Assembly: GCA_963668585.1 (NCBI GenBank)
Contig: OY764869.1
Span: 1,397,292-1,461,291 of the forward strand
Length of the DNA: 64,000 nucleotides
Source of the DNA: Dehalococcoidia bacterium
GTDB lineage: Bacteria; Chloroflexota; Dehalococcoidia; Lucifugimonadales; UBA3495
Direction of reading: 5' to 3'
How positions within the stretch are numbered: position 1 is the first letter of the stretch; each line of letters starts with the position of its first letter. Shown piece after piece: positions 14,958 to 64,000 of this stretch. The position numbers and the translations under genes were made by a program. Under the pieces are notes generated by a model that saw only the letters and a list, made by a program, of their open reading frames with translations, was not told the DNA's origin and ran no database searches.

Positions 14958-15029
14958 GTGGTCAGTCAGTTCGAGGCCCGGCGAAGTCGCCGTGTCCCCG
15001 ACATTGCAACACCAAGACGGGGTCAGGAC

Positions 15030-15593: not shown

Positions 15594-15598
15594 GAGTT

Positions 15599-16025: not shown

Positions 16026-16121
16026 GCGAGTGTCAAATCGAACGTCGATCTGGCAATCACTCTACAGCCTCCGGTGGAAAACTGCAAGACGCACCGGGGA
16101 CACGCCCTGACAAAGGAGAAA

Positions 16122-16385: not shown

Positions 16386-16732
16386 TGGACACCGGCGCCG
16401 AAAAGTTCGTTGACGACATGACCAAGGCCGGCTTCGACGTTTGCGTCGAGGCCGAGGTCGTCACATTCCAGATAACCCCCGTCGACGGTGCCCATGCCGG
16501 ATGTTTGGTCGATACCGGCGTGAGCTCCGGCGAGCTCGACCCTTGGCCCCAAGCGCCTCCGCACTGGGTCCACTTTCCAGACAGTGTTGGCTTCTCCAGA
16601 ACTAATCCCAAACCGTCGCCGAAGTCCGGATGGGTGATGCACAGCCGAAACCTCCACGGGTGGGGGGACGCTCCACCGGCGGTCTGTTGGGCCAGCCATG
16701 TGCGGGCGGTCCTGAGCGAGGCGACCTCATGA
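16385..16732 (+). CDS. E2/UBC-like (Prok-E2-type) protein, 115 aa
   Basis: Translationally coupled between the Ubl and JAB-E1 genes. WPQAPPHWVHFP block. Assignment rests mostly on context; no clear HPN-Cys signature. Confidence 0.5.
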   Translation: MDTGAEKFVDDMTKAGFDVCVEAEVVTFQITPVDGAHAGCLVDTGVSSGELDPWPQAPPHWVHFPDSVGFSRTNPKPSPKSGWVMHSRNLHGWGDAPPAVCWASHVRAVLSEATS

Positions 16733-25345: not shown

Positions 25346-25601
25346 TCTACAACGGTCGCCAACTGGGCAAAGGGACATCGTCGCTGTCCGTTTAACACGA
25401 CGGAATCGCTGGACAACAACACATCGCGTCCGGTGGTGAGACCCATTGAGCGTTTCAGCCAGGCAACCTTTTTCAAACCAGGAGTAATGAACCATGTTCA
25501 GTGTCAAAGGTAGAGCATCCAATCGGTTGGTTGTTGGCAGAGGTACGGACGCGGCGAGCGGCGGGCGTATTCCGGACCGCCGTTCCTGGCGGGGTGTGAG
25601 C

Positions 25602-42575: not shown

Positions 42576-43066
42576 GTGAGCGCCCTGGGAATAGAAGACG
42601 CAATCCGTCAGGTGATGGAGGCCTACCGTCGGCACGACGGCTGGCTCTCCAGAGACAAGACCAGGACGCGGTACGCCGCTGTCGACCCCATCCTGTGGGC
42701 TCTCCGCTGGCGCACCTGGAATCCGGCAGAATTCCAACCCGACTTTAGCCTGGGCCAGCGGGGCCAGGTGGATTACGCGCTCTTCGACAGCAACGGCAAC
42801 CTTGCTGTTTTGATTGAAGTCCATGTTGCGCGGTCGCGGCTCAGCCGCGACCGCATCCAGCTGTGGAACCACACCGCGGGATGACCCACGGAATAGGCGT
42901 CCTGACCCACGGGTTCTACTGGGAGGTCTATGACCTAAGCATCAAGACCCGCAACATCGACTGGCGGTGCGTAGCGAGACTGGCTCTGGACCCTGCGGAG
43001 CCCGACGGATTTCAGCGCGTTGCTGACGCTCTGCACCACTGGCTCGACCGGAGTAATTGGCCATGA
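42576..43066 (+). pseudogene. HsdR_N-like PD-(D/E)XK domain gene, frameshifted near 42865
   Basis: VDPILWALRW...GQVDYALFDSNGNLAVLIEV, then in another frame GIGVLTHGFYWEVYDL. Confidence 0.4.
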
Positions 43067-43227
43067 CGTCGGCAAAAGGAGGTGCTCATTCTCGGCAAGA
43101 TGACGTGATCCACCACGACGCAGTCCAGTCACGCACAGTCGCGGCGTCTGATTGCGAACCGTGCCTCACACCGAACCCAACAACTCAACCAACTGACGCC
43201 CGTCAGGGCGCCAAAGGAGCAGAAACC

Positions 43228-43716
43228 ATGTCAGTCAGCGAACCAGATGAATTTGAACTCCACGACAACATGCCTGAGCGCATGGAGAGGATGAATTCCG
43301 AACGCTCCCGAAGAGGCAGGAGAGAAGCCGCCCAAAGAGGATTTTACACATCGTCGATAGCCCCATACGGCTACCGGAAAGTCACCGTAATGGACTCGGG
43401 GAAGCGACACAACAAGCTTGAGCCGGATCCCCAACACGCGGACACAGTGCGGAGGATCTTCGGGGCCCGGCTGCAGGGCGCCACAGAGCGGGGCATCGCG
43501 GAACAACTGAACCAGGAGGGCATCCTATCGGCGACAGGGCAACGGTGGGACGCAGGAAAAGTGCGGCGCATCCTGCGCAACGAGGTCTACTGTGGGACCA
43601 TCGTGGTTGGGAGACGAGCCGCGGGGAACGCCGAAGCCCCGGTCAGAGTGCCGAACGCTTTCTCTGCGATCATCTCCCAGGACGAGTTCGACCAGGTGCA
43701 AAGGATGGACGAGTAG
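43228..43716 (+). pseudogene. large serine recombinase fragment: recombinase domain only, no catalytic domain
   Basis: RGFYTSSIAPYGYRKV...DTVRRIFGARLQGATERGIAEQLNQEGILSATGQRWDAGKVRRILRNEVYCGTIVVGR...ISQDEFDQVQ. Has its own AAAGGAG RBS. Confidence 0.6.
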
Positions 43717-44046
43717 CCCGTTCCGGACCAGCGTCTCGCTCGTTACGACGGTCTCACCAATGATGTGAAGCGTCATGCCAGCGAGGCCGATCCTGGCTTA
43801 CGGGCGCCGGCTCAGTGGAACGGCCCCTGACCGGGCATCATCCGAACGCGACCGGCGAACCCATGGCGAAACGGATTGAGAGCCCATCGGCCCCCTGACC
43901 ACCAGGGCAGTTTCCGGTCCCCTGCGTGCCTGTCAGAGCCGCGAACGCCAATTTGATGACACCAGGCCGTTGCGGCCCCAGGCAAATCCCAAATAAGCTC
44001 GGGGGCATCCCCGCCCGCGGATACCGCTTTGGCGATCCCCCGAGCA

Positions 44047-44678
44047 AAACCCTACATCTGGACCACCTGGCTTCCCAGGCTGCTGACCGGCGAGAATTCC
44101 TGTTAATGGAGCGTCTGGTTCAAGGCCCACTACCAGGACTGGGCCAGGGTTCCGTCGACTTCAACCAGGCCCAGTGGCTGCTCGACCATACCGCGCTGCT
44201 CAACGGGCGAAGAGCCAACTGGGAAGTCGGCGGCTATGACGTCGACGCCGAGGCCCAGAACAGCTTCGCACTCCGCGGCAGGTCAGCGACGCTTTCTGGC
44301 AAACCTGACCTGATTGCACACCGCGAAAACGAGGCCGTCATCGTCGACGCCAAGACCGGCCACAACAGCCCCAGCCACGTCGTGCAGGTCATGATCTACC
44401 TGTACGCCGTCCCAAGAGCACTGGAACGCTACCGCGACGCCAAGCTCCGCGGTCAGGTCACATACCGCGACCACACGGTCCGTATTCCGGCGGATGCCGT
44501 CGACGACCAGTTCGTGCAGAACCTGGGCGCGTTGATTCGCCGGCTCTCAGCCGGCGAGCCGGCGAGGAGGGTGCCCAGCCAGCAGGAATGCCGGTTCTGC
44601 GACATCAGCGCCGCCGATTGCCCAGTTCGCGTGGACGAAGCCTCCGCGCCAGACGCTGGAGAAACCGCCGACTTTTGA
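44047..44678 (+). pseudogene. Cas4-like nuclease paralog copy 2, with an in-frame TAA (44104-44106) plus a 1-nt frameshift
   Basis: PYIWTTWLPRLLTGENSC*WSVWFKAHY in frame 1, then DFNQAQWLLDHTALL...VMIYLYAVP...CRFCDISAADCP in frame 0. Confidence 0.8.
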
Positions 44679-45765: not shown

Positions 45766-48700
45766 TTAGTTGTTCAGCCCTGGAACGGTGATCTCCAGCT
45801 GTTCGGTGAGCTTACGGCCGTCTGAGGCGCAGATTGCTCCCTCGTCCTGGCAGTCCGTGGTGGGCGGCAGGACAATGGTGACGGCGTCGTTGCCGTCCGG
45901 CGTGATGCTGATCTCCCACCTGACGTTGTTCATGGCGCTGTTGGGCTCCAGCCGCCGTGCTTTCACTACTTCGCCTGCTGTGACCGTGAAGGCGTGGTCT
46001 CGCAGGGTGACGTAGTTGATCGGGATCTGCTCGCTGAACCGCAGCTCGAAGGTGAACGTGGTGCCATCATGGGACTCAGGCACCTCATGTTCGGTGGCCG
46101 TGAGCGGAGTTGCCGCCACGACGGTGGCGGTGGCCCCGCTGTTCAGCGTCTCGTCGTTGCCGGCGTTGTCGGTGAAGGACACCCTGACCTTGATGGTGTT
46201 GCCGGCGTCGGCTTCCGCCAGGGTGTAGCTGCGGCCGGTCGCGCCGGTGATCGCGGTATCGGAGCTGCCGTCGTTGGTGAGCCACTGGTAGGTGAACGTG
46301 TCGTTGTTGATGCCGTTGCCGTCGCTAATGCTCGAGGTGTCGGCCGTCAGGATCTGACCCACGCGGGCGTTGCCCTGGATGGCGGGCGCTCCGGTGGGCG
46401 CATCGTTCCGCCGAGGTACGCTTACGGTGAGGTCACCGGAGAGCTTCCGTCCATCGGCGGTGCAGATGGCGCCCTGGGCCTCGCAGTCCGTGGTGGCGGG
46501 CAGCGTGAGGGTTGCCGTGGCGTTGCCGTTCGGTGCAACGTGGACGGTCCACCGCTGGTTGTCGTTGCTGACCAGCCGGTTGGCTTTGACCACGTCGCCG
46601 CCGGTGACCGTGAAGGCGTGGTCTCGCAGCGTGGCGTAGCTCAGCGCGACGTGCTCGCCGAACCACAGCTCAAAGGTGAAGGTTTGACTTCCGTCGTGCG
46701 ACGTTGGCACTTCGTGGGTGGTGGCTGTCAGCATGGCCGGGGTATTGTTGGTTACGCTCTGATTGGCGAAGGATGCGGCGGCGTTGCCGGCGAGGTCCTG
46801 GAGCCGTGTTGCGGACTCGTCGGTTGGGGCGGTGTAGTCCACCGTCACCACGTTGCCGGCTATTACCGGCGTTGCCAGGGTTAGGGATGCGGCGGCTCCC
46901 GAAAGTGTGACCATCTCGACGGCCCGATTGCTGCCCGCGGCGGTCACGTAAAAGGCTGACGTACCCGGCGCAGCGTTCTCTTGCAGGGTTTCGTTGAAGG
47001 TGATGGTGAGTTCGGCGCCGTCCACTGAGGCGGACGTGACAGATGGGGGCGTGGTCTCCCGCGGTGTGGCGGTTACCTCTCCGGAGGGTTCTCCGTCGCC
47101 GCTGTCGTTGGTGGCCACGACGCGCACGGTGTATTCCACACCGTCCATCAATCCATCGATGACGTATGAGGTCTTGGTCGCGTCTGCCTGGGACACATCT
47201 TCCGTGGGGTCCCAATCGTTTGATGCGCTCTTCCACTGGATGGTGTATCCGGTGGGAGCTGTGCCTGCGGCCGGCGCCGTCCAGGTGGCGCTCAGTTTGC
47301 CGCTGCTGTGCGGGACGACCTGCAGATGCGTGGGGGCTTCGGGGACATCTCCCTCGCTGGACCCCTCATCCCGGGACGAATTACCGGCCGAGCCGTCGCC
47401 AGTTTGGTTGGTGACTGTCTGGTCAGTGAAGGATGCAGCGACGTTGCTGGCCGCGTCCTGCACGGGGTTGCTGCTGGGCGCGGTATAGCTCACGGTGACG
47501 GTGTCGTCGCTGGTGGCCGTGCTGACCAACGTGAGGTTCACCGTGCTGCCGTTGATGACTACTGTGGAAGGACTGGCTACCGAGTTGCTGCCCACGGTCA
47601 CCGAGTAGGCGCTCTGTGCCGGCGTGGAGTCGGTATCGAGGTCCTCGTTGTAGGCCAGCGCCAGCGACGCTCCGTTCACTGTCGCCGCCTCGAGCGCTGG
47701 CGCGGTGGTGTCCGGCGTATTGTTGGTCACCACCTGCCTGCTGAAGGAGGTCGCGGCGTTGCCCGCCGCATCCTGCACCCTGCCCACCCCTTCGCCCGTG
47801 GAGGCTGTGTAGTCAACCGTGACAATGTCCCGCGCCTCCACCGGCGGCGACAGCATCAGCAGCACCTGGGATCCGCCAATGCCGCCACCCAAGACCGTGT
47901 GGGGAGCGCTGTTGACGCTCACCGTGAAGGCACTGAACAACAGCGTGGCGCTGCTGTCCAGCGTTTCACTGTAGGTCAACTCCAGTGTGCCTCCGTTCAC
48001 GGTGGCCAACTGTAGCTGAGGAGCGATGTCATCGGACGGGGGAGTCCACTGAACACCGGCGCCCTGGTGGGCGGTGTCGGCAACGTGTCCGGCTGCGTTG
48101 CGGATGGTCCCGCCGTTCGGGACCAGGGAGTTGGGATTGATCAGAAGCGAACTGTGTTCCCCATCCGTTGCGACGAGGGTATAGTCGAAGACCAACTGGT
48201 CGGTGCCGCTGCCGCGCAGGTAGTGGGCGGACCTGGCCGCCGTCATGCCCAGCAGGACCGGAACCGAAGGTGTCCCGCCGGACGTGTCGACGTTGACCGC
48301 CTGGCTGAAGGTGAACGTGACCTCGACCGTTTCACCCGCGCCGAAGACCCCGTCCGCGCCCGGCTCGCCAAAGGTGGGCGCTCCGATGATCCCGGTCGCC
48401 TCGGCGTGGCCCTCTGACGTGGACGGCATCGTGCCCTCTTCGTTGGAGCGGTAGGTGCGGTGTCCCAGGATAGCCGCGTCGCCGGTCGCCACGCTGGAGA
48501 TGCTGCCGGACGGCGCCAGGGAATTGCTCGGATCGCGCAGGGCAAGCGAGTCCCGCGAGAGGCGAATCTGGTCGAAGGAGATTTCGCCGTCGACCTGCCC
48601 CAGTGTGTGGGTGAACACCATCCGCTCGGTACCGGAGCCGGTGGGGTGATAGAGCAGGGAGGCTTGCCCGCCGTAGAAGAGGGCCACGCGCGGAAAACCG

Positions 48701-51700
48701 CTTGGATTGGTGTCGACCGTCACGGCTTCGCTCCAGACCAGGGTCACCGTCACCGTGTCGTCCGCGGCATACCTTCCGTCCTCGCCGTCGGGCTGGCTGA
48801 ACTCGGCGTTCACTATCCAGGGCCCGGTGGTCTTCAGGCAACGCAGCCCCACGTCCTCCGCGTGCTGGCAGTTGTGCTTCCCCACTGGGCTGGAGCGACA
48901 GTCCAGTAAGTGCGACTCGCCGCCGTCGCAACTCAGGTCGTCCAGCCAGATCGGTTGGTCCCTATCGCCCGGCGGAAAGATCCCGCTGCCGAAGCGGCCG
49001 CTGTTCACCGAACCGTCCGGGAAGCCCAGCGCCCGGCAGGCCGTGTCCGCATCCTCTGTGCTCCAAAAGTCGTCGCAGATCGTCCCCCATTCGCCTTTGT
49101 AGTAAATCTCCAGGCGGCCCTCGCAGGGTTCCTCGTCATCGGCAATTGGCGGTCCGTCAACGAGTCGGAGGTCTCCGGTATTGTCGTCTACCGTAACCGG
49201 CAGCGCCTCCATCATCGCCTCGTATTCGCCGCCCGATGCGTTATGGGACAGGGTTTCCAGGTCGTCCTCGCGGTTGCCGTCGTGTGCCGCGGCGACGGTC
49301 AGGGTCTGCAAGGTGTTCCAGTTGGCGGCTGAGAAGTTCAGGGTGTCGTTGAGCAGGCTGGATCCGGTCAGGGTCAGGTCGGTGCCGCTGTGCCCGGTGA
49401 TGTTCAGGGCGACCGCCGCGGTGGGCTCGGTGGCCAGCTTGACGCCGTAGTCGGCCGTGCCGCTCTCGGGCACCGTCAGCTCGAGCGGCTGGAGAATGAT
49501 GCCCAGCGGGTCATTGTCGTTGACGGTGACCGTCAGGTCGGCGTCAACGCCATCGTATTCTGCCCCCACCGCCATGTGGGCCAGCGTCTCGGAGTCGGCC
49601 ACGCCGTCATCGTCGTGAGCCGTTTCGACGGTCACCGTCTGGGGCATGTTCCAGTTGAGCGAGGTGAACGTGAGGACGTCATTGGTCAGCCTGTTGCTCA
49701 CCAGTTCCAGGTCGGTGCCGGTGTGGCCGGTGATCGTGACGCTCACGTTCACCGTCGGCTCCGTCGCGAGGGCGACCGTGTAGCCGACGCTGTCTTCTTC
49801 CTCCACCGTCAACGAGGTGGGGCTGAAGAGGATATCCGCCGTGTCGTCGTCGGTGATGGAGACGGTGGTATCACCTTGCGTCCCGGCGCTGACCCGGGGG
49901 TCCGGCATGGTCCCGAATCCCAGAGTCACTTTCTCGTTGTCGTCGTCGATCAGGTCCTGGGTGACCTCGATGGTGAAGGTCTTGGAGCCAGTATCTCCGT
50001 CATTGAAGGTGACGCTGGGCATCACGGTGTAGTCGGCGGCGCTGGCCGTGCCCTGGGGCGTGGCCGTGATGGGGATGATGATGGTGCGCTCAGGGTCCGC
50101 GCTCACGCTCACGGAGACCTGCTGCGTGGCGCCTTCGGCCGCGGTATAGGCAGCCTGGGCGAACGACACCGTCACGGTGGGGTGGTCGTCGTCGCCGATG
50201 GTCAGCGTCGTTTCATTCGCGGTGCCAGGGGTTATCCGCTCGGGAAGGCTGGTTCCGAACCCCAGCTTGACGCTCTCGTCGTCGTCGTCGGCATCGTCGT
50301 CCTCCGCTTCAAAGGTTATGGTTTTCTCGGTCTCGTCCGCGGCGAAGGGCACGCTGGTGGGCACGGTATAGTCGGCGGAGGTGGCGCCGTCCTGTCCCGT
50401 GGCCGTGATGGGGATGGTCACCTCGCGCTCGGGCGCCGCGCTCAGCCTGACGGTCACGTTGACGGTGTCTCCTTCGGCGACCGTATAGTCGCTTTGGGGG
50501 AACTGGACCGTCACGTGCGGATGGTCGTCATCGGCGATGTTCACCGTGGTCTCACCGGTGGCGCCGACCAGGAGGCGGTCCGAGAGGTCGGATCCGAATG
50601 CCAGAACCACCTTCTCCCCGTCGTCGTCAAGGTCATCCTGGAGGGCAGTGAAATCGACGGTGGCCTCCGTGTCGCCGGCGGCAACCGTCAAGGTATCCGA
50701 TGTCAGAGAGTAGTCCTGGTCGCTGGCGCCGTCCTGGTTGGTCGCGGCGATGGGTATCTCGACGGAGTCCGGCAACGGACCACCCAGTGATACGGTGATA
50801 CCGACGTCATCTCCCTCGCCCACCGTGTGGGAGTCGCTCCCGAACTGCAACGACACAGGAAGCATGTCAATGGCAACCCGCACGGTGCTTCCTGAGGACA
50901 AGCTGAGACTGGAGTTGCTCCAGGTGACGGAGTTTCCGGCAGCATCGAAGGTGCCGTCCGACAGACGGAAATCCTGAGTCCCCACCCGCAGCCTGGTGTT
51001 CTGCAGCAGGCCCGGGTCCGGTTGCCGGTCCAGCACGAGTTTCAACTGGTTGCCGTCCCGTACAGTCAGTTGATCGACCACGTAGGCGGAGCCGCTGCGG
51101 CGCACCACCCGGTTGGACAGTGATCCCTGTAACGTTTCGCCCGGCCCCGGGTCGCGGAAGCCCAGGATCTGCGGCCCCCCGGCCGTGGCCGCTTCCAGGT
51201 CGGCGCACCAGAATCGGAAGCAGCCGACGGTCCTCCCGTCAACCTTGTGGCTGTTGCCCGCGTCCTGGCTGCTGTGGGTCAGGATGAGGGGGCGATTGTT
51301 GGCTGCGGTCCTGATGTTGCTGCTCCCGCTGGAGCCCAGGCTGTTGGCGCCGATGTTGAATCCGTTTTCGGTGTCCACGTCCGTGCTTTGCACGACGTAA
51401 CTGTACAGCAGCGTATTGGTGCCGCTTCCCGAGATGTATTCGGCGCGGCGTGCCTGATCTCCCAAGTTTAGCCGCGCCGTACCGCTAACGTGAACTACTT
51501 CCGCGGTGAACCTGTACTCGATCTCCAGGTTTTCACCGCCCTTGTAGGTATCCCCGTCCAGGGGCTGGGAAACCACCACCACGCTGTCAAGTTCCTCAGT
51601 TTCATCTGCGAAGACCTGCATTTTCAGGGAGTTTGCGGAATAATCATCGTCAGAATTGATGTCCTCGGTGTGGTTGCCCAAGCTCCATCCGGTAGCGGCC

Positions 51701-52662
51701 TCGGGATCCTCACTGTCGCTGGTGGCCAGTTCTACTTTCCCGTTTCCACCCGCTATTCCAACTACGACCCAATAGGTCGTGTTGGCAGCGAGGAATAGTC
51801 CATCGGAACTGTAGTCGATTTGCGCGATGTCGCCGGTGCTGACGGTTCCATTGGCGGTCAGAGCCTCGATGGTCGTTCCGATTGTGTTTCCCGATGCGTT
51901 GTTCCTGATGCTGACGCCGACCCAAGCGCCAGATTCTCTGGTCATGAGGAGCCGAACCTTGTTCAGCACGTATTTCGTGCTGCCTGTGGTGAAAGACGTT
52001 CCGATGACCCGAGCTTCCGCCAAGTTCGACGACTGCTCTCCCCGCGCCCGGTTGCTGACCGCCAGTTTGTCGGCAGGCGCGGAAGTGGCGAAAACCGTCA
52101 TGCTGATGGAGTGGGTACTAACGAAGTTCCCATCACGGTCCCTGGTGTCGTCGCCGATGGTCCAGTGTCTAAGCCCATCTTGGTCATCGTTTATGTCCGC
52201 TACACGAATCTTGGCCGTTCCGCCAAACGCTGACACCGCCACCCAATACGTCGTGAACGGCTCCAGGTAGGTGGTACCGTCCGGAGTGTAATTAGCGAAT
52301 TGCCGCGCGCCAAGTGTGCCAGCGTCGCCCGACATTCTCGCGTAGGTACTTCCCGGCTTGCCCGCGTTATCATGCAGGATGACCATACCGACTTGCGCAC
52401 TATCATCTGAACTCAATGTTACCCGGACACGATCCAGTTGGTGGCGAACGTTGGCGGTGGTGAATTTGGTTACCCTCCAATTAGTTTCGGGCCACTGGAT
52501 ACGGACGCCGCCGGATTGGGCAGTATTCTCCACTACGACGGTTGACTGCTGGGCGTGGCTTTCATCGCCGTTTCCGAGCATCAATAACGCCACCAGCACA
52601 GCGAACATGAGCATCATCGTCGGAGTGCGGCGGCGCCTCGGGCCGAGACGTCTCAAGGACAT
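45766..52662 (-). CDS. giant secreted multidomain protein, 2298 aa (beta-sandwich modules, Calx-beta repeats, SRCR, Ig-like/FN3 modules)
   Basis: Signal peptide MSLRRLGPRRRRTPTMMLMFAVLVALLMLG. Calx-beta-like repeats (V.F....Y.V.EGD...V.V.LS...). SRCR block. C-terminal modules shared with 25602-30962. Confidence 0.9.
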   Translation of the reverse strand: MSLRRLGPRRRRTPTMMLMFAVLVALLMLGNGDESHAQQSTVVVENTAQSGGVRIQWPETNWRVTKFTTANVRHQLDRVRVTLSSDDSAQVGMVILHDNAGKPGSTYARMSGDAGTLGARQFANYTPDGTTYLEPFTTYWVAVSAFGGTAKIRVADINDDQDGLRHWTIGDDTRDRDGNFVSTHSISMTVFATSAPADKLAVSNRARGEQSSNLAEARVIGTSFTTGSTKYVLNKVRLLMTRESGAWVGVSIRNNASGNTIGTTIEALTANGTVSTGDIAQIDYSSDGLFLAANTTYWVVVGIAGGNGKVELATSDSEDPEAATGWSLGNHTEDINSDDDYSANSLKMQVFADETEELDSVVVVSQPLDGDTYKGGENLEIEYRFTAEVVHVSGTARLNLGDQARRAEYISGSGTNTLLYSYVVQSTDVDTENGFNIGANSLGSSGSSNIRTAANNRPLILTHSSQDAGNSHKVDGRTVGCFRFWCADLEAATAGGPQILGFRDPGPGETLQGSLSNRVVRRSGSAYVVDQLTVRDGNQLKLVLDRQPDPGLLQNTRLRVGTQDFRLSDGTFDAAGNSVTWSNSSLSLSSGSTVRVAIDMLPVSLQFGSDSHTVGEGDDVGITVSLGGPLPDSVEIPIAATNQDGASDQDYSLTSDTLTVAAGDTEATVDFTALQDDLDDDGEKVVLAFGSDLSDRLLVGATGETTVNIADDDHPHVTVQFPQSDYTVAEGDTVNVTVRLSAAPEREVTIPITATGQDGATSADYTVPTSVPFAADETEKTITFEAEDDDADDDDESVKLGFGTSLPERITPGTANETTLTIGDDDHPTVTVSFAQAAYTAAEGATQQVSVSVSADPERTIIIPITATPQGTASAADYTVMPSVTFNDGDTGSKTFTIEVTQDLIDDDNEKVTLGFGTMPDPRVSAGTQGDTTVSITDDDTADILFSPTSLTVEEEDSVGYTVALATEPTVNVSVTITGHTGTDLELVSNRLTNDVLTFTSLNWNMPQTVTVETAHDDDGVADSETLAHMAVGAEYDGVDADLTVTVNDNDPLGIILQPLELTVPESGTADYGVKLATEPTAAVALNITGHSGTDLTLTGSSLLNDTLNFSAANWNTLQTLTVAAAHDGNREDDLETLSHNASGGEYEAMMEALPVTVDDNTGDLRLVDGPPIADDEEPCEGRLEIYYKGEWGTICDDFWSTEDADTACRALGFPDGSVNSGRFGSGIFPPGDRDQPIWLDDLSCDGGESHLLDCRSSPVGKHNCQHAEDVGLRCLKTTGPWIVNAEFSQPDGEDGRYAADDTVTVTLVWSEAVTVDTNPSGFPRVALFYGGQASLLYHPTGSGTERMVFTHTLGQVDGEISFDQIRLSRDSLALRDPSNSLAPSGSISSVATGDAAILGHRTYRSNEEGTMPSTSEGHAEATGIIGAPTFGEPGADGVFGAGETVEVTFTFSQAVNVDTSGGTPSVPVLLGMTAARSAHYLRGSGTDQLVFDYTLVATDGEHSSLLINPNSLVPNGGTIRNAAGHVADTAHQGAGVQWTPPSDDIAPQLQLATVNGGTLELTYSETLDSSATLLFSAFTVSVNSAPHTVLGGGIGGSQVLLMLSPPVEARDIVTVDYTASTGEGVGRVQDAAGNAATSFSRQVVTNNTPDTTAPALEAATVNGASLALAYNEDLDTDSTPAQSAYSVTVGSNSVASPSTVVINGSTVNLTLVSTATSDDTVTVSYTAPSSNPVQDAASNVAASFTDQTVTNQTGDGSAGNSSRDEGSSEGDVPEAPTHLQVVPHSSGKLSATWTAPAAGTAPTGYTIQWKSASNDWDPTEDVSQADATKTSYVIDGLMDGVEYTVRVVATNDSGDGEPSGEVTATPRETTPPSVTSASVDGAELTITFNETLQENAAPGTSAFYVTAAGSNRAVEMVTLSGAAASLTLATPVIAGNVVTVDYTAPTDESATRLQDLAGNAAASFANQSVTNNTPAMLTATTHEVPTSHDGSQTFTFELWFGEHVALSYATLRDHAFTVTGGDVVKANRLVSNDNQRWTVHVAPNGNATATLTLPATTDCEAQGAICTADGRKLSGDLTVSVPRRNDAPTGAPAIQGNARVGQILTADTSSISDGNGINNDTFTYQWLTNDGSSDTAITGATGRSYTLAEADAGNTIKVRVSFTDNAGNDETLNSGATATVVAATPLTATEHEVPESHDGTTFTFELRFSEQIPINYVTLRDHAFTVTAGEVVKARRLEPNSAMNNVRWEISITPDGNDAVTIVLPPTTDCQDEGAICASDGRKLTEQLEITVPGLNN

Positions 52663-52934
52663 CTTCTTGACCCCCGCTCCACTACCGACTGTGCCCGAAG
52701 CGCCGGACCACGCAGCCTGGCACCACACCCGAGGCCCGTAAACCGGCGATGATGCTCCGTGACAAGCAGGCTCTGGCCTCGGGATACCCCCAGGGTGAAG
52801 CCAGCTTGGATGACCGGAGAACAGTACCGCCGGCATCGCCGGCAACACTGACTGTGAGCAGGTAGCAGGTCTACCCTTCTACCCGCTTGCCTCAAATGAT
52901 CGGAGCACGCCATCAAACTGTCTCGGGTAGCGGG

Positions 52935-53375: not shown

Positions 53376-53667
53376 GACGCTCCTCTTATCCCCGTGAACC
53401 TCTACACAGTTATTGAGTTCGCGCAGCAACACCAACGACCGACACACCCTCACCCGGTGACGCCGCACGAACCGCTCACCTCATCCACGTTATCCCGTGG
53501 ATGACATCGACCCACCGACCGGTCGGGCGAGCCCATGCCCACGTCTTATTTGACGTACAACGTTCAGGTTAGACCACCGATGTGAAATGGCCGTGAATTA
53601 TCGGGTAGATATTGTGCGGATTTCGTGCAGATTCATCCCGGCTACAACAAACCAGCCCGACATTTTG

Positions 53668-54402
53668 ATGACAGCAGCCCATGGCGGGCGGCGCTCAGGC
53701 ACCAATAAACTGGAGGCATCCCCAACGACCAACGCCGAGAGCCCCCACATGCCCGCTGCTCAACGCGCCTTCCCCTACATCTGGACGACCTGGCTTCCCC
53801 GCCTACTCACCGGTGAGAACTCCTGCGAGTGGGCGATCTGGTTCAAAGCCCACTACGTCGAATGGACACGGCAACCCTCCGACTTCGATCAGGCCGAGTG
53901 GCTCATGCGCCACACGGCGCTGCTGAACCAGCAACGCCAAGAATGGCTCGACCGTGGCTACGCCGTCCACATCGAGGGTCAGAATGCCTTCCAGCTGCGC
54001 GGGAAGGCAGCCACACTGGCCGGCCGCCCCGACCTCGTGGTGCTCGCCGACCGAGACGCCACCATCATCGACGTCAAGACCGGTCGAGAACAGCCTTGGC
54101 ACCGCGTACAGGTCATGATCTACCAGTACGCTCTACCTCTGGCCCTGCCGCAGTACCGGGACGTCAGGATCGGCGGCGAGGTCATATACCCTACGCGCAC
54201 GGTGCGAGTCCCGAGGGGAGCGCTACCCAACCAGTTCATCGAGGATCTAGGCGCCCTGATCCGGCGGCTGGCGGCCGACGTCCCGCCCCAGCGGGTGCCG
54301 AGCGCACAGGAGTGCCGGTTCTGCGACATCACGGCCGGCGATTGTCCGGACCGGGTTGAAGCGAACCGAGACACACCAGAGGGAACGACGGCGGACTTCT
54401 GA
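53668..54402 (+). CDS. Cas4-like PD-(D/E)XK nuclease with a 4-Cys cluster; the only intact paralog (alternative start at 53749)
   Basis: ENSCEW...; RPDLVVLADRDATIIDVKTG; QVMIYQY; CRFCDITAGDCP (C...CxxCx6C). Confidence 0.8.
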   Translation: MTAAHGGRRSGTNKLEASPTTNAESPHMPAAQRAFPYIWTTWLPRLLTGENSCEWAIWFKAHYVEWTRQPSDFDQAEWLMRHTALLNQQRQEWLDRGYAVHIEGQNAFQLRGKAATLAGRPDLVVLADRDATIIDVKTGREQPWHRVQVMIYQYALPLALPQYRDVRIGGEVIYPTRTVRVPRGALPNQFIEDLGALIRRLAADVPPQRVPSAQECRFCDITAGDCPDRVEANRDTPEGTTADF

Positions 54403-57061: not shown

Positions 57062-57895
57062 CTAGTCCAGCCCCACACGTCGCAGCGTGTATGCGTCCCC
57101 GGCCATAATTTCCCCAATCTTGGCCGGCAGGCCGCGAAAATCATCGGTCGACGCCGAAATCAACCTTCCGGTCAACGCTCCGCTTTCGTCTGAGGCCAGC
57201 CACACTGCCAGCTCGGCGCACTCGTCTATGGAGGCGCCGCCGCCCGACGTTACCCTCAGCCCGAGCTGATGGATGAAGTCCGCGCCCGCCTCGGCGGCCT
57301 GCTCGGTCATCTTGTCCCACATGCTGGTATGGACCGAGCCCGGCCCCAGGGCGTTCACCGCAATTCCCTTGCCGTCTAGTTCCTGCGCCAAAACTTCGGT
57401 AAGCCGCACCACCGCCGCCTTGCTGGAGCAGTAGGCCGACATGTTGCTCCACGCATTGGTCGCGCCGGCTCCCGACAGGTTGATGATCTTCCCTTCTGAC
57501 TGCGCCAGCATGACAGGAATGACAGCCCTGCACACCAGGAAGGTGCCGGTGAGGTTGACGCTGATGGTATTTACCCAATCAGCGATGTCGTTGCCCTGCA
57601 ACGGCCCGACGGGCCCAGAGATGCCGGCATTGTTGACCAGAACGTCAATACGTCCGAATCGCTCAACAGCCGTGTGGACCAACCGTTCTGTGTCCTTCTT
57701 GCTGGTAATGTCGGTGGGAACGGCGACCGCTTCAGCGCCCAGTTCCGAAACGGCACCGACGACCTTTAGCAACTCGGATTCGCTGCGTGCGGCGAGCGCC
57801 AGATTTGCGCCTTCACGGGCATAGGCCAAGGCGATAGCTCGCCCAATGCCCCGCCCGGCACCCGTGATGATTGCTACCTGACCATCCAGTTTCAT
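57062..57895 (-). CDS. SDR-family oxidoreductase
   Basis: ITGAGRGIGRAIA; NNAG; S...YCSSKAA catalytic pattern. Confidence 0.9.
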   Translation of the reverse strand: MKLDGQVAIITGAGRGIGRAIALAYAREGANLALAARSESELLKVVGAVSELGAEAVAVPTDITSKKDTERLVHTAVERFGRIDVLVNNAGISGPVGPLQGNDIADWVNTISVNLTGTFLVCRAVIPVMLAQSEGKIINLSGAGATNAWSNMSAYCSSKAAVVRLTEVLAQELDGKGIAVNALGPGSVHTSMWDKMTEQAAEAGADFIHQLGLRVTSGGGASIDECAELAVWLASDESGALTGRLISASTDDFRGLPAKIGEIMAGDAYTLRRVGLD

Positions 57896-58154: not shown

Positions 58155-58177
58155 CTTTGGCTAACAAAGGAGCAGAA

Positions 58178-58630
58178 ATGCCGGCTCCCCGCATACTACC
58201 CCTGGGATTCATCGACAGAACCACCGACGACGGCGCAATCATGCTGCTAACCACGCCCAGCGAATCCCACGACCTGCGTGTCGAGACGGCGGTCACACTG
58301 GCCAGTCGGAGCATTGGACAAACCAACGCCACCGCCAGAGTACGCGGCATAATAACCGCCGTGGGCTACGTCACCGCCACCTTCAAGATGGTGGAGACCC
58401 AAAAGACATCCAACTGGCCCGAGGACGAGCAGGTGCTACAGCGGGGAACTCCCATATACCAAGCACTGCCCGGCAGCTTCACTCCCGACCCCGTGAGAAC
58501 AATCAGCAGGGAACAGGCGGAAAGTCTCAACAGGCTCGCAGCCCGGTACCGAGAAACCACCTACCCAACACCGCCGACCATCGTCACGCCACGCCAACCT
58601 CCAAGGAACGGCAGACACCCAGACCCATAG
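58178..58630 (+). CDS. hypothetical protein, 150 aa
   Basis: AAGGAG RBS; ORF only. Confidence 0.45.
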   Translation: MPAPRILPLGFIDRTTDDGAIMLLTTPSESHDLRVETAVTLASRSIGQTNATARVRGIITAVGYVTATFKMVETQKTSNWPEDEQVLQRGTPIYQALPGSFTPDPVRTISREQAESLNRLAARYRETTYPTPPTIVTPRQPPRNGRHPDP

Positions 58631-58709
58631 CCGTTCAGCAGCAAAACCGCATTCTTGACGAATACCGCGCATTCTGAAAAACTATTACTGAAGCAAGGAG
58701 AAAGATCAT

Positions 58710-59408
58710 ATGACTGACAAAACCGTCGTGGATGGCAGCTTGCCTTCGCTCGATGAAATCGTCCACTGCGCCAACTGCGGAGCCAGAATGGCGCACACCG
58801 GGCAAATCTACTACTGCCCAACCCCCTCGTCCGATTCTGGACGCGACTGTCCCACCAACCCGGTTGGCACGCAACTCCTGCTCCGCACAGTGTTCAACGG
58901 GCTGCTGAACAGGCTCGTCACCGATGACAAAGTTCTTCACCTGACCCAGGCCATCAAGGCAACCATCGAACCGCACGAGAATGCCCAGCGCAAGAGGATG
59001 GAACGCGCCGAGGCGGCTCTGGCAGACGCGAACGCCCAGGAACCCACCGTCTTCCAAGCCGCGGAAAACCGCACCAAGCATTACCAAGACACGACAACCG
59101 AGGTCGGCGCACTGGACCAGCTCACCGCGGCACGCGCCCTTGAGTCCATGGCCGCCCGTGACGAGCTGGACAAGATCTCCTTCATCAGCGACGAGCAGGG
59201 GATCCGGGATGATGCCACCAACCCGGCCACCTTCCTGGAAGGCAACAGCCTCGACGAGGCCCAAGAATTGCTGGACCTCCTGGTCGAGAAAATCATGGTC
59301 GACTCGAAGACCGCACTCATCGTGTACCAGGTCGATATGCCCACCGCCTCACCGTCGGAAACCATCAAAGAGGACCGCATGGAACTCTACCCCGCGTTCA
59401 TGCTCTGA
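58710..59408 (+). pseudogene. large serine recombinase fragment: zinc-ribbon plus coiled-coil C-terminal region only
   Basis: HCANCGARMAHTGQIYYCPT...DCP, a long coiled-coil, and LLVEKIMVDSKTALIVYQV parallel residues ~330-520 of the recombinase at 60596-63268. Has its own AAGGAG RBS. Confidence 0.55.
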
Positions 59409-59437
59409 CCAGGCATCAACACATAAAGAAAAAATAA

Positions 59438-59471
59438 GGAGCAACTCTCAAATCGAGAGTTGCTCCTTTTT
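59438..59471. terminator. bidirectional rho-independent terminator
   Basis: 12-bp stem GGAGCAACTCTC/GAGAGTTGCTCC, flanked by an A-run and a T-run. Confidence 0.75.
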
Positions 59472-59735
59472 ATGGGTCGGGAGTACTCACGGAGCAGACC
59501 ACCTGGTCAGTGGTCAATGCGACACCGACCCCAACGTTTCCATTAGGCTGCCAGCGACAGCCCCAAGCTCGCTCTAAACAGTATCACCTTCGTGCAAATC
59601 GAACGCTTCCGTGCAAATCAACGCTTCATGCTCTTTGGTCACTTGCGGCATTTCTTTCCCAAAGGTCCTCAATAGTCAATCTAACAGCGAACCCAGCGTT
59701 TTCCTTGGGCTGCCAGCGACAGCCCTAAACGTGCT

Positions 59736-60032
59736 CTAAACAGCGGCATCTTCGCCGGAATCGAAGGCTTCATATTCTTTAGCCACTCGCGGCATTTCTT
59801 CCCAGAGGTCCGAGGCCGATTCCTCTGATACGGGTTCTTCATCTCGAAGAGCCTTGAGCTTGGCGAACAGCGCACATCTCTGTTTCAAGACCGCTCTCAC
59901 CAGCACCTCGTCAGCCCGTATCAATTTGTCGTTGTCCGTATGGACAACTTTTTTGTTCACCTCCGGTCCGATGGTATGATCGTGTGCACGTTCGTTCATC
60001 TGATATACTGGCTCGAGCTTTGCTCCAGTCAT
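59736..60032 (-). CDS. small hypothetical protein divergent from the XRE gene; start uncertain
   Basis: ORF-track 59736-60068. cro/cI-like divergent arrangement. Confidence 0.4.
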   Translation of the reverse strand: MTGAKLEPVYQMNERAHDHTIGPEVNKKVVHTDNDKLIRADEVLVRAVLKQRCALFAKLKALRDEEPVSEESASDLWEEMPRVAKEYEAFDSGEDAAV

Positions 60033-60115
60033 CTCCTTTTTGGGTAGTCGATGCAAGCACCGCCGCACCTATTATAGCAGAGCGAACAGCAATTCCAGGG
60101 AAGGATGGCAGGAAA

Positions 60116-60583
60116 ATGGTCACGAAAGAACGGATTTCCGAAAAAGACGTAGACACCGAGGCCGAATCCCCACCAGACCAGAGGAACCCCAAAACCAGAC
60201 AGCGCCCGCCCATTGGCGAACTGCTCAAGCAGCTTCGCGGAACCAAGACACTCCGGCAGGTGGAAGCCGACACCGGGATCACCAACGCCTATCTGAGCAA
60301 CCTGGAACTCGGCCTCAAAAAGCCCGGCATGAGGACGTTGACCAAGCTCAGCCGCTACTACTCCGTATCCATGGACCACCTGCTCAGTGTCGCCGGCATG
60401 GAGGGAGAAGTCCCGCAACCAGCCGGCGCGGACTCGGTCATGGACATCCAGCGAGCGTTTGACTTCGTCATCACCGACCCCAACGTAGCCCACTATCAGA
60501 AGCCGGCAGACATCCTGCCACTCGATGCGCAGAAATTCGTCGTCCAGATCTACCAGCACTACACCGGTAGGAAACTCCTGTAA
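60116..60583 (+). CDS. XRE-family HTH regulator
   Basis: IGELLKQLRGTKTLRQVEADTGITNAYLSNLELGLKKPGMRTLTKLSRYY. Confidence 0.8.
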   Translation: MVTKERISEKDVDTEAESPPDQRNPKTRQRPPIGELLKQLRGTKTLRQVEADTGITNAYLSNLELGLKKPGMRTLTKLSRYYSVSMDHLLSVAGMEGEVPQPAGADSVMDIQRAFDFVITDPNVAHYQKPADILPLDAQKFVVQIYQHYTGRKLL

Positions 60584-60718
60584 GAGAGCAAAATAATGTC
60601 GCCTACCACCATGTACCATTCCGCCGCGCAACAGACTGCGGTACAACTGAACATCGCCAGAAAGGCCGTGAGATACCGCAGGGTGTCGGGTAAATCCCAA
60701 AAGGACAACTTCTCCCTA

Positions 60719-61561
60719 GGGAGTGTCGTCAAAACAATGTGAGGGTGATAGATTGGAGTGAGTTGGGAGAGTTTGGAGGGTGGGGAGTATGCGAGCAGCG
60801 CACCGGCGCCACGATATGACTGATGATGTTTGGGAGCGATTGAGGCCGCATCTGCCCGGGGGAGAGGGCAAGCAGGGCCGACCGGCCCATGACAACCGTC
60901 GGTTTATCGACGCCGTGTGCTGGATTTTGCGTACCGGAGCGCCCTGGCGGGATTTGCCGCCGGACTACGGAGACTGGAAGAACACTCACCGGCGGTTCTG
61001 CCGCTGGCGGGATCGGGGAGTGTGGGCCGGACTGCTGGAGGCGGTGATGGATGACCCTGATTTCGAATGGCTGATGATCGACGCCAGCTATATCAAGGCC
61101 CATCCCCATAGCGCTGGGGCCCGGGGCGGCAACCAGGCCATGGGCCGCACCAAAGGGGGCTGAACAGCAAGCTGCACCTGGCGGTGGACTCCCACGGCAT
61201 GCCGGTCAGGCTGGCCGTTACCGAGGGCACGGCAGCCGACTCCTCCCAGGCATTGCCTCTGATCCAGGGGATCGAGGCCCAGTGCCTGCTGGCGGACAGA
61301 GCCTACGACACCAATGAAATCATAGCCACGGCCCGGGAATTGGGCATGGACCCAGTGATACCACCGAAGAGGAACCGGAGGGAGCAGCGGGACCATGACC
61401 CGGCGCTGTACCGGTTGAGACACCTGGTGGAGAACGGTTTTCTGGAGTTCAAGCAGTGGCGCGGCGTGGCGACCCGTTATGCCAAGAGAGCCGCGTCTTA
61501 CCTGGCCATCTGCCAACTCCGGGCAGTGATGGTCTGGAGCAAACTCTTTTGACGACACCCC
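60719..61561 (+). mobile_element. complete IS5-family (IS427-group) element, 843 bp, with a CTA target duplication
   Basis: IRs GGGAGTGTCGTCAAAA (60719-60734) and TTTTGACGACACCCC (61547-61561). CTA at 60716-60718 and 61562-61564. Confidence 0.85.
60780..61552 (+). CDS. IS5/IS427-group transposase, orfA-orfB joined by a probable -1 frameshift near 61150-61163
   Basis: DDVWERLRPHLPG...RFIDAVCWILRTGAPWRDLP; DASYIKAH; ADRAYD; VENGFLEFKQWRGVATRYAK. orfB is in the -1 frame after AAAGGGGG. Confidence 0.85.
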
Positions 61562-63145
61562 CTACGAACCCAAGACGCACGTTCCGCGCAATACTGCGAA
61601 TCCAAGGGCCTAACTATCGACAAAATATTCACAGACGTGGGCACCGGATTATCCGCCACGGGACGCCGTGGATTCACCGGAATGTGCGACTACGTCTTCG
61701 ACAAAACAACCTGCGTTACCGACGTAGTCTTCAATGACATAGATCGCTTCACCCGAAACTTGGGGCATTTCATCGAATACACCGAGCGCATGGTCAATGC
61801 CGGCATCACATTGCACATAGCGATCGACGCCGAGGAATACGACTACTACTCGGCGGAGAAATGGATGGATCGAGCTGTCAGCGCACAGAAGGAAAGCAGG
61901 CGGATCTCCATACGCACCAAGGGTGGTCAGAGAACCGCCACAGAACTGGGTCACCACATCGGACCCGCGCCTTGGGGCTACATGCTCGAGCACGAGACGG
62001 ACGAGTTGGACGAGAACGGTTATCACGCCATCTGCGGCAAGCTGGTCCCAGACCCGGACCTATGGCCTCACGTCCTGGAGTTCTGGCGTTTGGCCGAAGA
62101 GGGCACCACACCAATGTCCCTCGCCCGACACATGCGTCTACAGGGTCTCCCGTCCCCCAGAGGGAAGGAATGGACTGGCGATACAGCGCGCGGGATCATG
62201 AAGAACCCGAAATATTTCGGCTTGCTCTTCCGTGGATCGAATCCCAAGTCCCGGATACCGGGACCCCAGGAAAATGCCCCACCTATCTTTCGGGAAGACA
62301 ACCATGAGGCAGCAGTCAGCCGTGAGGGCTGGGAAAAAGTAAACAAGGGAATCGCGAGCAGGCACAGGAGCCGAGCGCCAACCCGCTCTCACTCCAGCCC
62401 AAACCCTTTGAGCAACTTCCTCAAGTGCGGTCATTGCGCGCTCCTGGGAATAGACTCAAACCTTGAGTTGCAACGACAGAAAGGCAAATTGGTCGTACGC
62501 TGCTCGCGAAAGAAGAATATGGGCGCTGACGTATGCGATTTCAAGAGCGCCAACCTGATCACATTGCTGGAACGCATCAAAGACAGAGTGGTGCATCACT
62601 TCCTCACCCCGGAAACCCTCGCTAGGGTAGTTAGCGGCGTCGCCGAAGCCAGCAGACCGATGCTAGCACAACGGCAGACCCAATTAACCCATATCCGTGA
62701 ACGGAAGCAGGAGGTCAACACCGCGATCAAGAACATCAACGACGTGTTGAAAAAAGCTGGCGCTCAAGCCCCAAACCTGCAATCGCTCATAGACGACCTT
62801 GCCAACCTCGAGATTGAACGGGCAGACCTCGAAAAAGAAGGCAGCCAGATTGATGAGGCTACGGAAGAGGCTCTCCGCTTCGTGAACGACCCAGCCGGCA
62901 TCATCGAAACGGCCTTGGACTACAAGACCTGGACCAACCCTGAGGACCCGGAAGCGATCAAGGAGTTCTTGCAGATTTTCATCGAAAAAGTGGAAGTCTT
63001 TGAGCTCGAGGAAGGCGCCACGGACCAGCGTGCGGTGATCCACTACGACATACGAGCATTCGGCGCAGGAGCAAAAGGCGCCTCAGCCACCGAGACCATC
63101 CACATAGGTAAAAAAAAGTCCCTAAACGTGTCCGCAGATAATTGT

Positions 63146-63296
63146 GGTTTAGATGGGTTCACGGGGATAGACCCGGAGCGATTTATGCCACCCAGGACCG
63201 GAAACAGGTTCCCCCGCACGCGCGGGGATAGACCCGACGCATCAGCCTGGACCCGTTGGTTCAGGTAGGTTCCCCCGCACACGCGGGGATAGGCGA
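63146..63296 (+). CRISPR. orphan type I-E-like mini-array: 3 repeats (29 nt) and 2 spacers (32 nt)
   Basis: GGTTCCCCCGCACGCGCGGGGATAGACCC at 63207-63235. Variant GGTTCCCCCGCACACGCGGGGATAGGCGA at 63268-63296. Half-degenerate GGTTTAGATGGGTTCACGGGGATAGACCC at 63146-63174. Spacing is exactly 32 nt. No cas genes in the window. Confidence 0.7.
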
Positions 63297-63356
63297 GGGG
63301 CAGACAGTTCGTCCGCCCCTATGCACATTCATCCCGTCCATCATTGTGAGATGCGA

Positions 63357-64000
63357 CTACGCCCGCCGCAGGCCCAGGTGGTCGTAGCGGAAGCGCCGGT
63401 CGCCGATGCTGAACTCGAACCCGCCGCCGGCCGGCGCGGGCTCCACCGAATCAGGCGGCTCGATCCCTGGCAGCCACCGCGTTGATAGCGCGATGCGGTC
63501 GATAGCGCGTGATGCGTCAAAGGGGCTGGCGGCCTCCGGTTGGAACGTGATTTCCACCCGGTCGTCGCCCAGCCTGGTGCGTATCCGCTCGTCGTCGCTG
63601 GGGAACAACACGTCCAGGTTGTCAGTGAAGAATGACTTGTCCCGGCGAATGAGGTGTCCGCGCGCGGTCTGCACATCGGCGATGTGGCCGCCGGCGGTGC
63701 CGATGGAATGTTCCTTCCACTCGTCTCCCAATTCCTCAGTGATCCGCTCCAGAACCTCGGGATGGGTCGCCATCTCCACCAGTTCCCGATTCATCTCCGG
63801 TATGCGCCATTGGGAATACTGATCAACCAGCCGGCGGGTTGCCTCAAGGATGTGCAGGTTGCGGTACACGCCGCCGTGGGGCCCCAGCCCGTTGGCGGTA
63901 CCGCCGGAGGAGAGCAGCGGCGATAGGTCATCCCCCGGCGTGAGCACGATGCAGCGAGGCTCGGTGTAGTCGCCGGGTCGGGTTCCGTCATTCTGCCGAT
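63357..64000 (-). CDS. hypothetical protein, 5'-partial (continues past the window end)
   Basis: The reading frame stays open to position 64000. No family recognised. Confidence 0.45.
   Translation of the reverse strand, partial: RQNDGTRPGDYTEPRCIVLTPGDDLSPLLSSGGTANGLGPHGGVYRNLHILEATRRLVDQYSQWRIPEMNRELVEMATHPEVLERITEELGDEWKEHSIGTAGGHIADVQTARGHLIRRDKSFFTDNLDVLFPSDDERIRTRLGDDRVEITFQPEAASPFDASRAIDRIALSTRWLPGIEPPDSVEPAPAGGGFEFSIGDRRFRYDHLGLRRA

Follow-up and report, generated by a model that had tools for sequence, protein, structure and literature searches.

A short CRISPR array is fused to the 3' end of an open reading frame (ORF) for a large serine recombinase (LSR) in a 64,000-nt stretch of Dehalococcoidia bacterium contig OY764869.1 (positions 1,397,292 to 1,461,291), hereafter the window. 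This fusion probably marks the place where an integrative element meets, at its right end, a type I-E CRISPR array of the host. The initial annotation, made from the letters of the window, had described an orphan mini-array and offered three readings of it: an integrative element inserted at a CRISPR array with a half repeat as the junction, a mini-array carried by a mobile element, and a relic array. The first of these has been borne out, in that the homology of the LSR family ends at one and the same nucleotide beside either a CRISPR repeat or an SDR gene; the third holds as a description, since what is left is the trailer-end remnant of a small array beside cas3. The array is not an orphan because the C-terminus of Cas3 adjoins it, and the accompanying statement that the window has no cas genes was mistaken (Table 1).

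The array has an exact period of 61 nt, in which a half repeat, a full repeat and a terminal repeat are separated by two spacers of 32 nt. The claim of three 29-nt repeats with 32-nt spacers thus stands for the period and for the last two repeats but not for the first unit, which is a 13-nt 3' half. This half repeat is in register with the repeat that follows; the formal 29-nt unit (63146-63174) keeps only CGGGGATAGACCC and a GGTT. Both parts are present, as had been claimed, but the GGTT belongs to the conserved LSR sequence TGTGGTTTAG (Cys-Gly-Leu), and the DNA running into the half repeat reads ..AATTGTGGTTTAGATGGGTTCA/CGGGGATAGACCC, where the slash, here and below, marks the joint. The resemblance of the middle repeat to the type I-E consensus was correctly seen: the stem CCCCGC/GCGGGG (here a separator only), the 3' handle ATAGACC-N, the length of about 29 nt and the unique spacers of about 32 nt are those of a type I-E array, and this consensus forms canonical arrays beside I-E cas operons. 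The initial annotation had proposed a search for the repeat elsewhere, and a scan of a genome collection by repeat pattern found it in canonical arrays of up to 130 units in at least 120 stretches, mostly chromosomes of Dehalococcoidia metagenome-assembled genomes (MAGs); dozens of these arrays are adjoined by cas8e-cas2. The last repeat is degenerate at its 3' end, as described, and differs from the full repeat only at position 14 and in its last five bases (GGCGA). Neither half of the repeat has another copy in the window, in which shuffles expect 0 full-repeat matches, and an Rfam search returned neither CRISPR-DR nor any other match at gathering scores or at E<=1.

A comparison of the two spacers with IMG/VR, with every sixth base left free, gave no match, and there was no meaningful match in the window or in the relative loci examined. 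No leader with a promoter was found upstream of the first repeat, and promoter prediction over 62800-63500 gave no sigma-70-type site. Nor is the AT-rich patch (63105-63145) to which the initial annotation had drawn attention a leader; it is conserved LSR coding sequence (IHIGKKKSL..NCG).

The LSR has the architecture of its class, with Resolvase and Recombinase domains, a zinc ribbon and a coiled coil, and it matches the phrog_95 integrases (E=7e-56). Its gene is split by an insertion sequence (IS) of the IS5 family, which has imperfect terminal inverted repeats of 25 nt and a TA target duplication (60717-18 and 61563-64) and whose transposase lies in two parts and frames (60780-61163, DUF4096; 61184-61552, DDE_Tnp_1). 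Two related transposase pairs occur in L001, one of the loci with a homologous LSR (L numbers denote loci, and P numbers LSR protein clusters). The LSR ORF does read through the array, as reported, and runs to the TAG at its end; its tail translates as ..NCGLDGFTGIDP..FPRTRGDRP.., and its last 34 codons consist of the half repeat, spacer 1, repeat 2 and spacer 2. In an alignment of homologues, protein conservation stops at ..NCGLDGFTG (about 63166), and the ORF passes through its own putative crossover site (..CACGGGGAT).

The position at which conservation stops is the same across the family. The family alignment is conserved as far as ..NCG-x-x-x-x-TG, beyond which the sequence is arbitrary, and the end codons read ..Cys-Gly-Leu-x-x-x-Thr-Gly (TGTGG..CAC[G/A]GGGAT). 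The tail TGID[PR], which is the half repeat in translation, is found in 13 of 60 homologue clusters, or in 12 of the 49 clusters of full-length LSRs, the window's being included in both counts (the thirteenth is P0059). The 12 clusters with this tail other than the window's are 38-68% identical to the window LSR. On the family tree they occur here and there, interspersed with clusters whose tails differ. In nine of the 13 the tail extends to FPRTRGDRP or PHTRG, the translation of full repeats in two frames. The junction was then checked at the DNA level in eight loci (the window, L001, L002, L130, L135, L136, L137 and L138), all of which read TGTGN, 14-17 nt, NGGGAT/AGACC, a unique spacer and then the array. 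Besides the window's, these arrays have about 6, at least 7, 10-11, 20, about 35 and at least 42 repeats, in three repeat variants.

The closest relatives of the window LSR are joined to something else. In L134 (88% nt identity) and L133 (82%), homology ends at 63168/63169 and the 5' half of an antisense SDR gene follows; the more distant L131 (also P0036) runs on into what may be the antisense of a CoA-transferase-like gene. One breakpoint with unrelated partner DNAs is the signature of a site-specific crossover and not of a conserved coding tail or of an array owned by the gene. The initial annotation had allowed that the pattern might prove to be a conserved coding C-terminus of LSR homologues; these homologues do read through the repeats, but their spacer-encoded residues differ and the arrays extend well past the end of the ORF. 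GTG..TATC tends to be present in the first spacers next to the joint and is the mirror of the inverted element arm GTGAACCCATC, which would fit a choice of half-site by an LSR that reads about 20 bp on each side and picks a suitable neighbour. The conserved start of the first spacer had also been considered as a sign that spacer 1 is borne by the element; this was rejected, as the SDR-joined relatives break before the spacer and the likeness fits the half-site preference. Five diverged LSR clusters (P0032, P0039, P0043, P0047 and P0048) all end in TGLG-stop right past the crossover point, a tail that could represent the unintegrated (attP) state or another conserved target.

To whom the arrays belong can be seen from comparisons between loci. 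Downstream of the array, L135 and L137 agree at 95% identity for 9 kb, and the two spacers nearest the trailer (the oldest) are common to both, all other spacers being different; between their LSR modules, identity is only 76%. The terminal repeat, the trailer and the flanking gene of L001 recur (91% nt identity) in L069, where there is no LSR and where the array consists only of a truncated repeat, a spacer and the terminal repeat. The window has its terminal repeat, hairpin and cas3 in common with the LSR-free L047 and L140 (below). Because trailers, flanks or old spacers are shared across differing LSR modules or with LSR-free genomes, the LSR-adjacent arrays are those of the hosts, and different LSR elements would have joined them independently.

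This bears on the second reading of the initial annotation, a mini-array borne by a mobile element that acts in conflict between elements by means of host Cas proteins. Put more broadly, such an array would travel with the element, and its crRNAs, or a crRNA-like regulator, would use the host Cas proteins against rival elements or silence host cas genes. The linkage of LSR and array does recur in many loci, in L137 the two lie together between 2-kb direct repeats, and mini-arrays of this kind are described for phages and prophages (PMC10120712; bioRxiv 10.1101/2024.10.29.618823). However, the trailer repeat, the hairpin and cas3 are common to LSR-free genomes, the arrays reach at least 42 repeats, the repeat variants differ between hosts, and trailers or old spacers are shared between L135 and L137 and between L001 and L069 without a matching LSR module. 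No spacer target was found in IMG/VR or in the loci examined, and no array was seen to lie inside the element, to move with it and to target rivals or cas promoters; an origin of the array in the element is very unlikely.

The L135/L137 comparison could also be taken to mean that the 3' end of the LSR gene now acts as a leader or promoter and that the adjoining array is still transcribed and acquiring spacers, since these orthologous arrays differ in all their leader-side spacers and both have an LSR there. Such a function is hardly credible: the interval lacks a predicted sigma-70-type promoter, as said above, the sequence is conserved as protein and not as leader, the LSR modules of L135 and L137 have diverged too far for inheritance in place, and there is neither cas1 nor cas2 near the window array.

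The cas3 ORF, which begins 60 nt past the terminal repeat, is identified as Cas3e by PADLOC (E=9e-11) and is 65% identical to the end of Cas3 in L047; its homologues are labelled Cas3 by the source annotation and carry Cas3-like_C_2. Genes for Cascade, cas1 and cas2 are absent from all of the 64-kb window, and what lies beyond the partial cas3 is outside it. An intact form of the locus is found in L047, a Dehalococcoidia MAG chromosome, where cas3, cas8e, cas11e, cas7e, cas5e, cas6e, cas1e, cas2e, a 50-nt leader and a long array follow one another on one strand. The genes of L140 are arranged in the same way, and neither locus has an LSR. Both share with the window a terminal repeat of the same degenerate type, the hairpin and the cas3 stop. 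Between cas3 and cas8e, on the opposite strand, they have a mini-array composed of a half repeat (CGGGGATAG[A/T]CC), one 32-nt spacer and the terminal repeat, after which come the hairpin and the cas3 stop. The spacers have seed-anchored matches, flanked by AA-N, 36-87 nt upstream of the start of cas8e, of 13 consecutive nt in L047 and of 10 consecutive nt (20/33 overall) in L140. These mini-arrays look like new members of the creR or regulatory class known from the cas3-cas8 interval in type I-E (Liu et al., bioRxiv 10.1101/2023.03.10.532045; Shmakov et al., PMC10120712). By position, the window array is their counterpart, with an orthologous terminal repeat. The sequence GTGG(AA)TTTAGA is common to L047 and the LSR arm, a resemblance that is unexplained; its interpretation as a -10 box or a host-side arm was dropped.

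It might be that the window array is simply a native creR-type mini-CRISPR between cas3 and cas8e, that its truncated first repeat is native too, and that the LSR gene came to adjoin it through an unrelated rearrangement. The two LSR-free loci, with their half repeat, 32-nt spacer, similar terminal repeat and seed matches upstream of cas8e, speak for this, and the architecture is the one known for I-E regulatory mini-arrays. Like creR, the window array lies against cas3 on the opposite strand, its first repeat keeping the 5' handle and its last the hairpin. Unlike creR and the mini-arrays of L047 and L140, it has two spacers and a perfect consensus repeat in the middle, the cas8e promoter and operon beside it have been replaced by the LSR gene, and neither spacer has in the window a seed match to a cas8 promoter with a protospacer adjacent motif, or any other detectable target. 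Moreover, the LSR arm abuts GGGGAT exactly, as it does in 12 other clusters, where long arrays stand away from cas3, and the SDR-joined relatives break at the same nucleotide. Even with a repeat that was truncated beforehand, LSR recombination at the core would still be needed. A wholly native origin of the arrangement is thus unlikely.

The junction between element and host array could have arisen as follows. The crossover core would lie in the last codons of the integrase, these codons would be the element-side arm of the attachment site, and the landing DNA would supply the stop codon. The partner would have been a repeat, either full or already truncated, of a small array against the 3' end of cas3, and the LSR would presumably have catalysed a crossover in GGGGAT/AGACC. 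The 5' half of the repeat would have been replaced by the LSR arm, which would leave, in order, a half repeat, spacer 1, a repeat, spacer 2, the terminal repeat and cas3. In the relatives, the side that would have been replaced is the cas8e promoter and the cas8e-cas2 operon, and the mini-array there looks like a one-spacer autoregulator of the creR type. The window has none of the cas8e-cas2 genes over at least 63 kb; its cas3 and what remains of the array are therefore separated from Cascade, the adaptation genes and any leader, and the locus is dismantled, or at least split. The IS5-family element would have inserted afterwards, splitting the LSR gene, killing the integrase and freezing the junction. 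Whatever benefit the element drew from its position might have been an escape from CRISPR or a safe landing site.

Several observations weigh against this junction model. No LSR stands beside the repeat in any of the 120 genome stretches that carry it, among the matches listed, and the LSR family is absent from an IMG/VR scan. First repeats truncated at their 5' end exist without an LSR (L047, L140, L069 and L077), so the target was perhaps a regulatory repeat already truncated. The mobility of the LSR family and its site preference are putative, and the direct repeats of about 2 kb around the LSR and array of L137 are unexplained. A left junction was sought in the window (63 kb) and in the upstream 10 kb of the eight LSR loci, as the 5' half of the repeat (<=6 mismatches), as any CCCCGC..GCGGGG or GGTTSCCCCGC, and as the inverted element arm, and none was found, which is the main gap in the model; the initial annotation had proposed to compare the junction with the other end of the element. 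A 12-nt near-match at 41240 is within chance expectation. Finally, the window element has an intact SDR gene on its left yet a CRISPR joint on its right, and a single insertion does not explain both ends.

The SDR gene may be a second attachment target of this LSR clade. The SDR-joined relatives have an intact SDR copy to the left of the module and a displaced 5' fragment of the gene at the LSR end, as if the element brought a replacement 5' half with it, and the window has the intact copy only. Since one insertion leaves the two ends unexplained, a secondary rearrangement must be assumed; by conjecture, an event such as recombination between element copies in the SDR gene and in the array would explain both the ends and the loss of Cascade. 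In the window only the right side of the element is an array, and its two ends do not share parts of one array or repeat; the element may be larger or rearranged. No attP was found in the window or in the loci examined, and the right breakpoint is common to CRISPR-joined and SDR-joined loci. An attL would be expected to read GGTTCCCCCGCAC[GA]CGCGGGGAT and to go on into non-repeat DNA.

A more general proposal is that a whole family of LSR elements in Dehalococcoidia-type Chloroflexota, some of them from a marine-sponge metagenome, uses the 3' half of the I-E repeat (GGGGAT/AGACC with a favourable spacer start) as a recurrent attachment site, and that each landing rewrites the C-terminus of the integrase and severs the array from its leader and cas genes; this is about as likely as not. 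Mobile elements that integrate into CRISPR arrays are a known kind. A literature search of limited coverage turned up no account of serine recombinases that target CRISPR repeats, or of a family of them fused to type I-E repeats.

The temperate phage PhiAP1.1 reportedly integrates into the type II-A CRISPR repeats of Streptococcus pyogenes. As in the window, a CRISPR repeat serves there as the attachment site, the site of the element resembles the repeat, and parts of the array are parted from their expression context. The window differs in having an LSR, a type I-E system, a host from the Chloroflexota (Dehalococcoidia) and a right junction only; no anti-CRISPR gene was identified in it, and its element is not recognisably a phage, none being found in IMG/VR.

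Cyanobacteria have Tn7-like transposons that take CRISPR arrays as their target (Chacon Machado & Peters, Mob DNA 2025, PMC11837452). They too are a family that prefers the CRISPR array, has kin with other targets and takes a fixed position relative to the repeat; their transposition, however, is guided by TnsD and places them within spacers, always at one position, whereas the proposal here is of a conservative site-specific recombination inside the repeat that destroys its 5' half. IS insertions that inactivate CRISPR-Cas (PMC10359306) likewise disrupt a CRISPR-cas locus physically, but they enter cas genes in an untargeted manner, and the LSR joint falls on one particular nucleotide of the repeat and is found repeatedly within a recombinase family. 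With the large serine integrases of the PhiC31, Bxb1 and A118 class (LSR attachment sites are surveyed in PMC10083194), the window LSR has in common its domain architecture, an attachment site beside the integrase gene and related enzymes that differ in target. Unlike in that class, the crossover of the window LSR is inside the integrase ORF, so that each target gives the protein a different C-terminal tail and stop codon. That target is, moreover, a repeated, palindromic repeat of an immune system. In myxophage Mx8, attP lies inside the gene for its tyrosine integrase.

If an LSR family does target type I-E repeats, it would constitute a third, mechanistically distinct route by which mobile elements reach CRISPR arrays, after the streptococcal prophage and the cyanobacterial Tn7-like transposons. 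Integration itself would then be an anti-CRISPR move, or the arrays would be multi-copy safe harbours; arrays in defence-rich symbiont genomes would be landing pads, and integration could dismantle a CRISPR-cas locus. Nature would also offer serine integrases whose target is short, known and abundant and whose tail is exchanged on integration, which would interest those who engineer integrases. For annotation, the lesson is that "mini-arrays" fused to an ORF can be recombination junctions. A by-product is the documentation of creR-type autoregulatory mini-arrays in type I-E systems of Dehalococcoidia.

Table 1. Features of the window and of related loci. Coordinates without a locus number are window positions; a slash within a sequence marks the joint.
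Feature	Position	Strand	Remarks
Intact SDR gene	57062-57895	-	directly left of module
SDR site CATGACAGGAAT/GAC	57510-57523		point where the SDR 5' fragment of L133/L134 joins the LSR end
Left module	58157-60583	.	157-aa protein 58157-58630 +; 232-aa protein 58710-59408 +; small ORF 59736-60068 -; XRE-type helix-turn-helix (HTH) regulator 60116-60583 +
LSR, first 41 codons (MSPTTMYHSAAQQTAVQLNIARKAVRYRRVSGKSQKDNFSL)	60596-60718	+	with catalytic-serine motif RRVSG (..YRRVSGKSQKDNFSL); aligns with homologue N-termini
IS5-family insertion sequence	60719-61562	+	844 bp; splits LSR gene
LSR, remainder	61565-63268	+	stop TAG 63266-63268
Putative LSR attachment-site arm and crossover core, element side: TGTGGTTTAGATGGGTTCACGGGGAT	63143-63168	+	
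Half repeat CGGGGATAGACCC	63162-63174	+	3' half of type I-E repeat; keeps 8-nt 5' handle
Spacer 1, GGAGCGATTTATGCCACCCAGGACCGGAAACA	63175-63206	+	32 nt
Full consensus type I-E repeat, GGTTCCCCCGCACGCGCGGGGATAGACCC	63207-63235	+	
Spacer 2, GACGCATCAGCCTGGACCCGTTGGTTCAGGTA	63236-63267	+	32 nt
Terminal repeat GGTTCCCCCGCACACGCGGGGATAGGCGA	63268-63296	+	hairpin intact, 3' end degenerate (..GGGGATAGGCGA)
GC-rich hairpin GGGGCAGAC-AGTTC-GTCCGCCCC	63297-63319	.	between terminal repeat and cas3 stop
Type I-E cas3, 3' end	63357-64000	-	C-terminal 213 aa; stop codon 63357-63359; runs off window
SDR 5' fragments joined to LSR end	L133:11681-12133; L134:2184-2597		
One-spacer mini-arrays	L047:7301-7458; L140:11074-11254		

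The left module is kept to the left of the LSR gene in every homologous locus. Its stand-alone 232-aa protein corresponds to serine integrases in their zinc-ribbon and coiled-coil part only (phrog_95 positions 375-561), and its gene is always two genes upstream of the LSR gene (the window, L001, L002, L130, L131, L133 and L135-L138); by mimicking the C-terminal domain of the integrase, it could act as a factor of directionality or regulation. The intergenic stretch that separates this gene from the small reverse-strand ORF contains, at 59507-59811, a tandem duplication (about 150 nt, 70% identical) with GGCTGCCAGCGACAGCC hairpins. A second, truncated serine-recombinase gene with a Recombinase domain only is found at 43057-43716.

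The window contains three diverged copies of a gene for a Cas4-like PD-(D/E)XK nuclease (973-1622, 43926-44678 and 53587-54402), and the same nuclease flanks the LSR-array region on both sides in L135 and L137. These multi-copy genes were tried as a mark of the left end of the element and rejected, having only coding sequence in common. In L137, the direct repeat of 1.96 kb (95-2046 and 14925-16879, 91% identical) contains DinB, SnoaL and the first 180 nt of a PD-(D/E)XK gene. Between its two copies lie the nuclease, the module, the LSR and the array, together with two IS elements and a BBE oxidase; a larger composite element may be bounded by it, or it may be the sign of a duplication.

Other oddities concern the repeats and cas3. 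In L012 (7380-7470), a second 3' half repeat stands 2 nt past a full repeat. First repeats truncated at the 5' end, with no LSR of the window's family nearby, lie at 7150-7250 in L077 and on the reverse strand at 5960-6060 in L069. Near the left end of L097, the end of an array runs straight into the middle of an apparent serine recombinase gene (putative, by reading of the translation). The IMG/VR contigs L003, L006 and L008 have single perfect copies of the window's I-E repeat with no neighbouring repeat, which may be units of the kind proposed as RNA anti-CRISPRs. In L139 (8442-11086) and L140 (8381-10834), cas3 is called as two adjacent ORFs, one with the HD and helicase parts and the next with the C-terminal domain, and nearly all database matches to the C-terminal part of Cas3 are short proteins of 120-367 aa; the two-ORF form may be either a real split or frameshift or an artefact of long-read assembly.

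A metagenome scan yielded two relevant loci only. As for the setting, L130 and L131 come from the metagenome of the sponge Aplysina aerophoba (MKWU). The window itself has giant ORFs of 1687, 1822 and 2360 aa (8790-13853, 25494-30962 and 45766-52848) with fibronectin-III, cadherin-like, SRCR, Calx-beta and SWM-repeat domains, and proteins related to them are encoded upstream of the LSR module in L002. The relatives from a sponge metagenome and the giant proteins with fn3, cadherin, SRCR and Calx-beta domains fit a sponge-associated host from the Chloroflexota. An M78 peptidase and HTH pair stands beside a ThiF/E1-like gene both in the window (15030-18237) and in L001 (19978-21785), where a Multi_ubiq gene is added, and this cluster resembles ubiquitin-like defence cassettes. 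The neighbourhoods of the LSR loci are rich in defence genes generally, having, besides ubiquitin-like cassettes, genes for restriction-modification, AbiE, retron-type reverse transcriptase and AAA_15/21 proteins.

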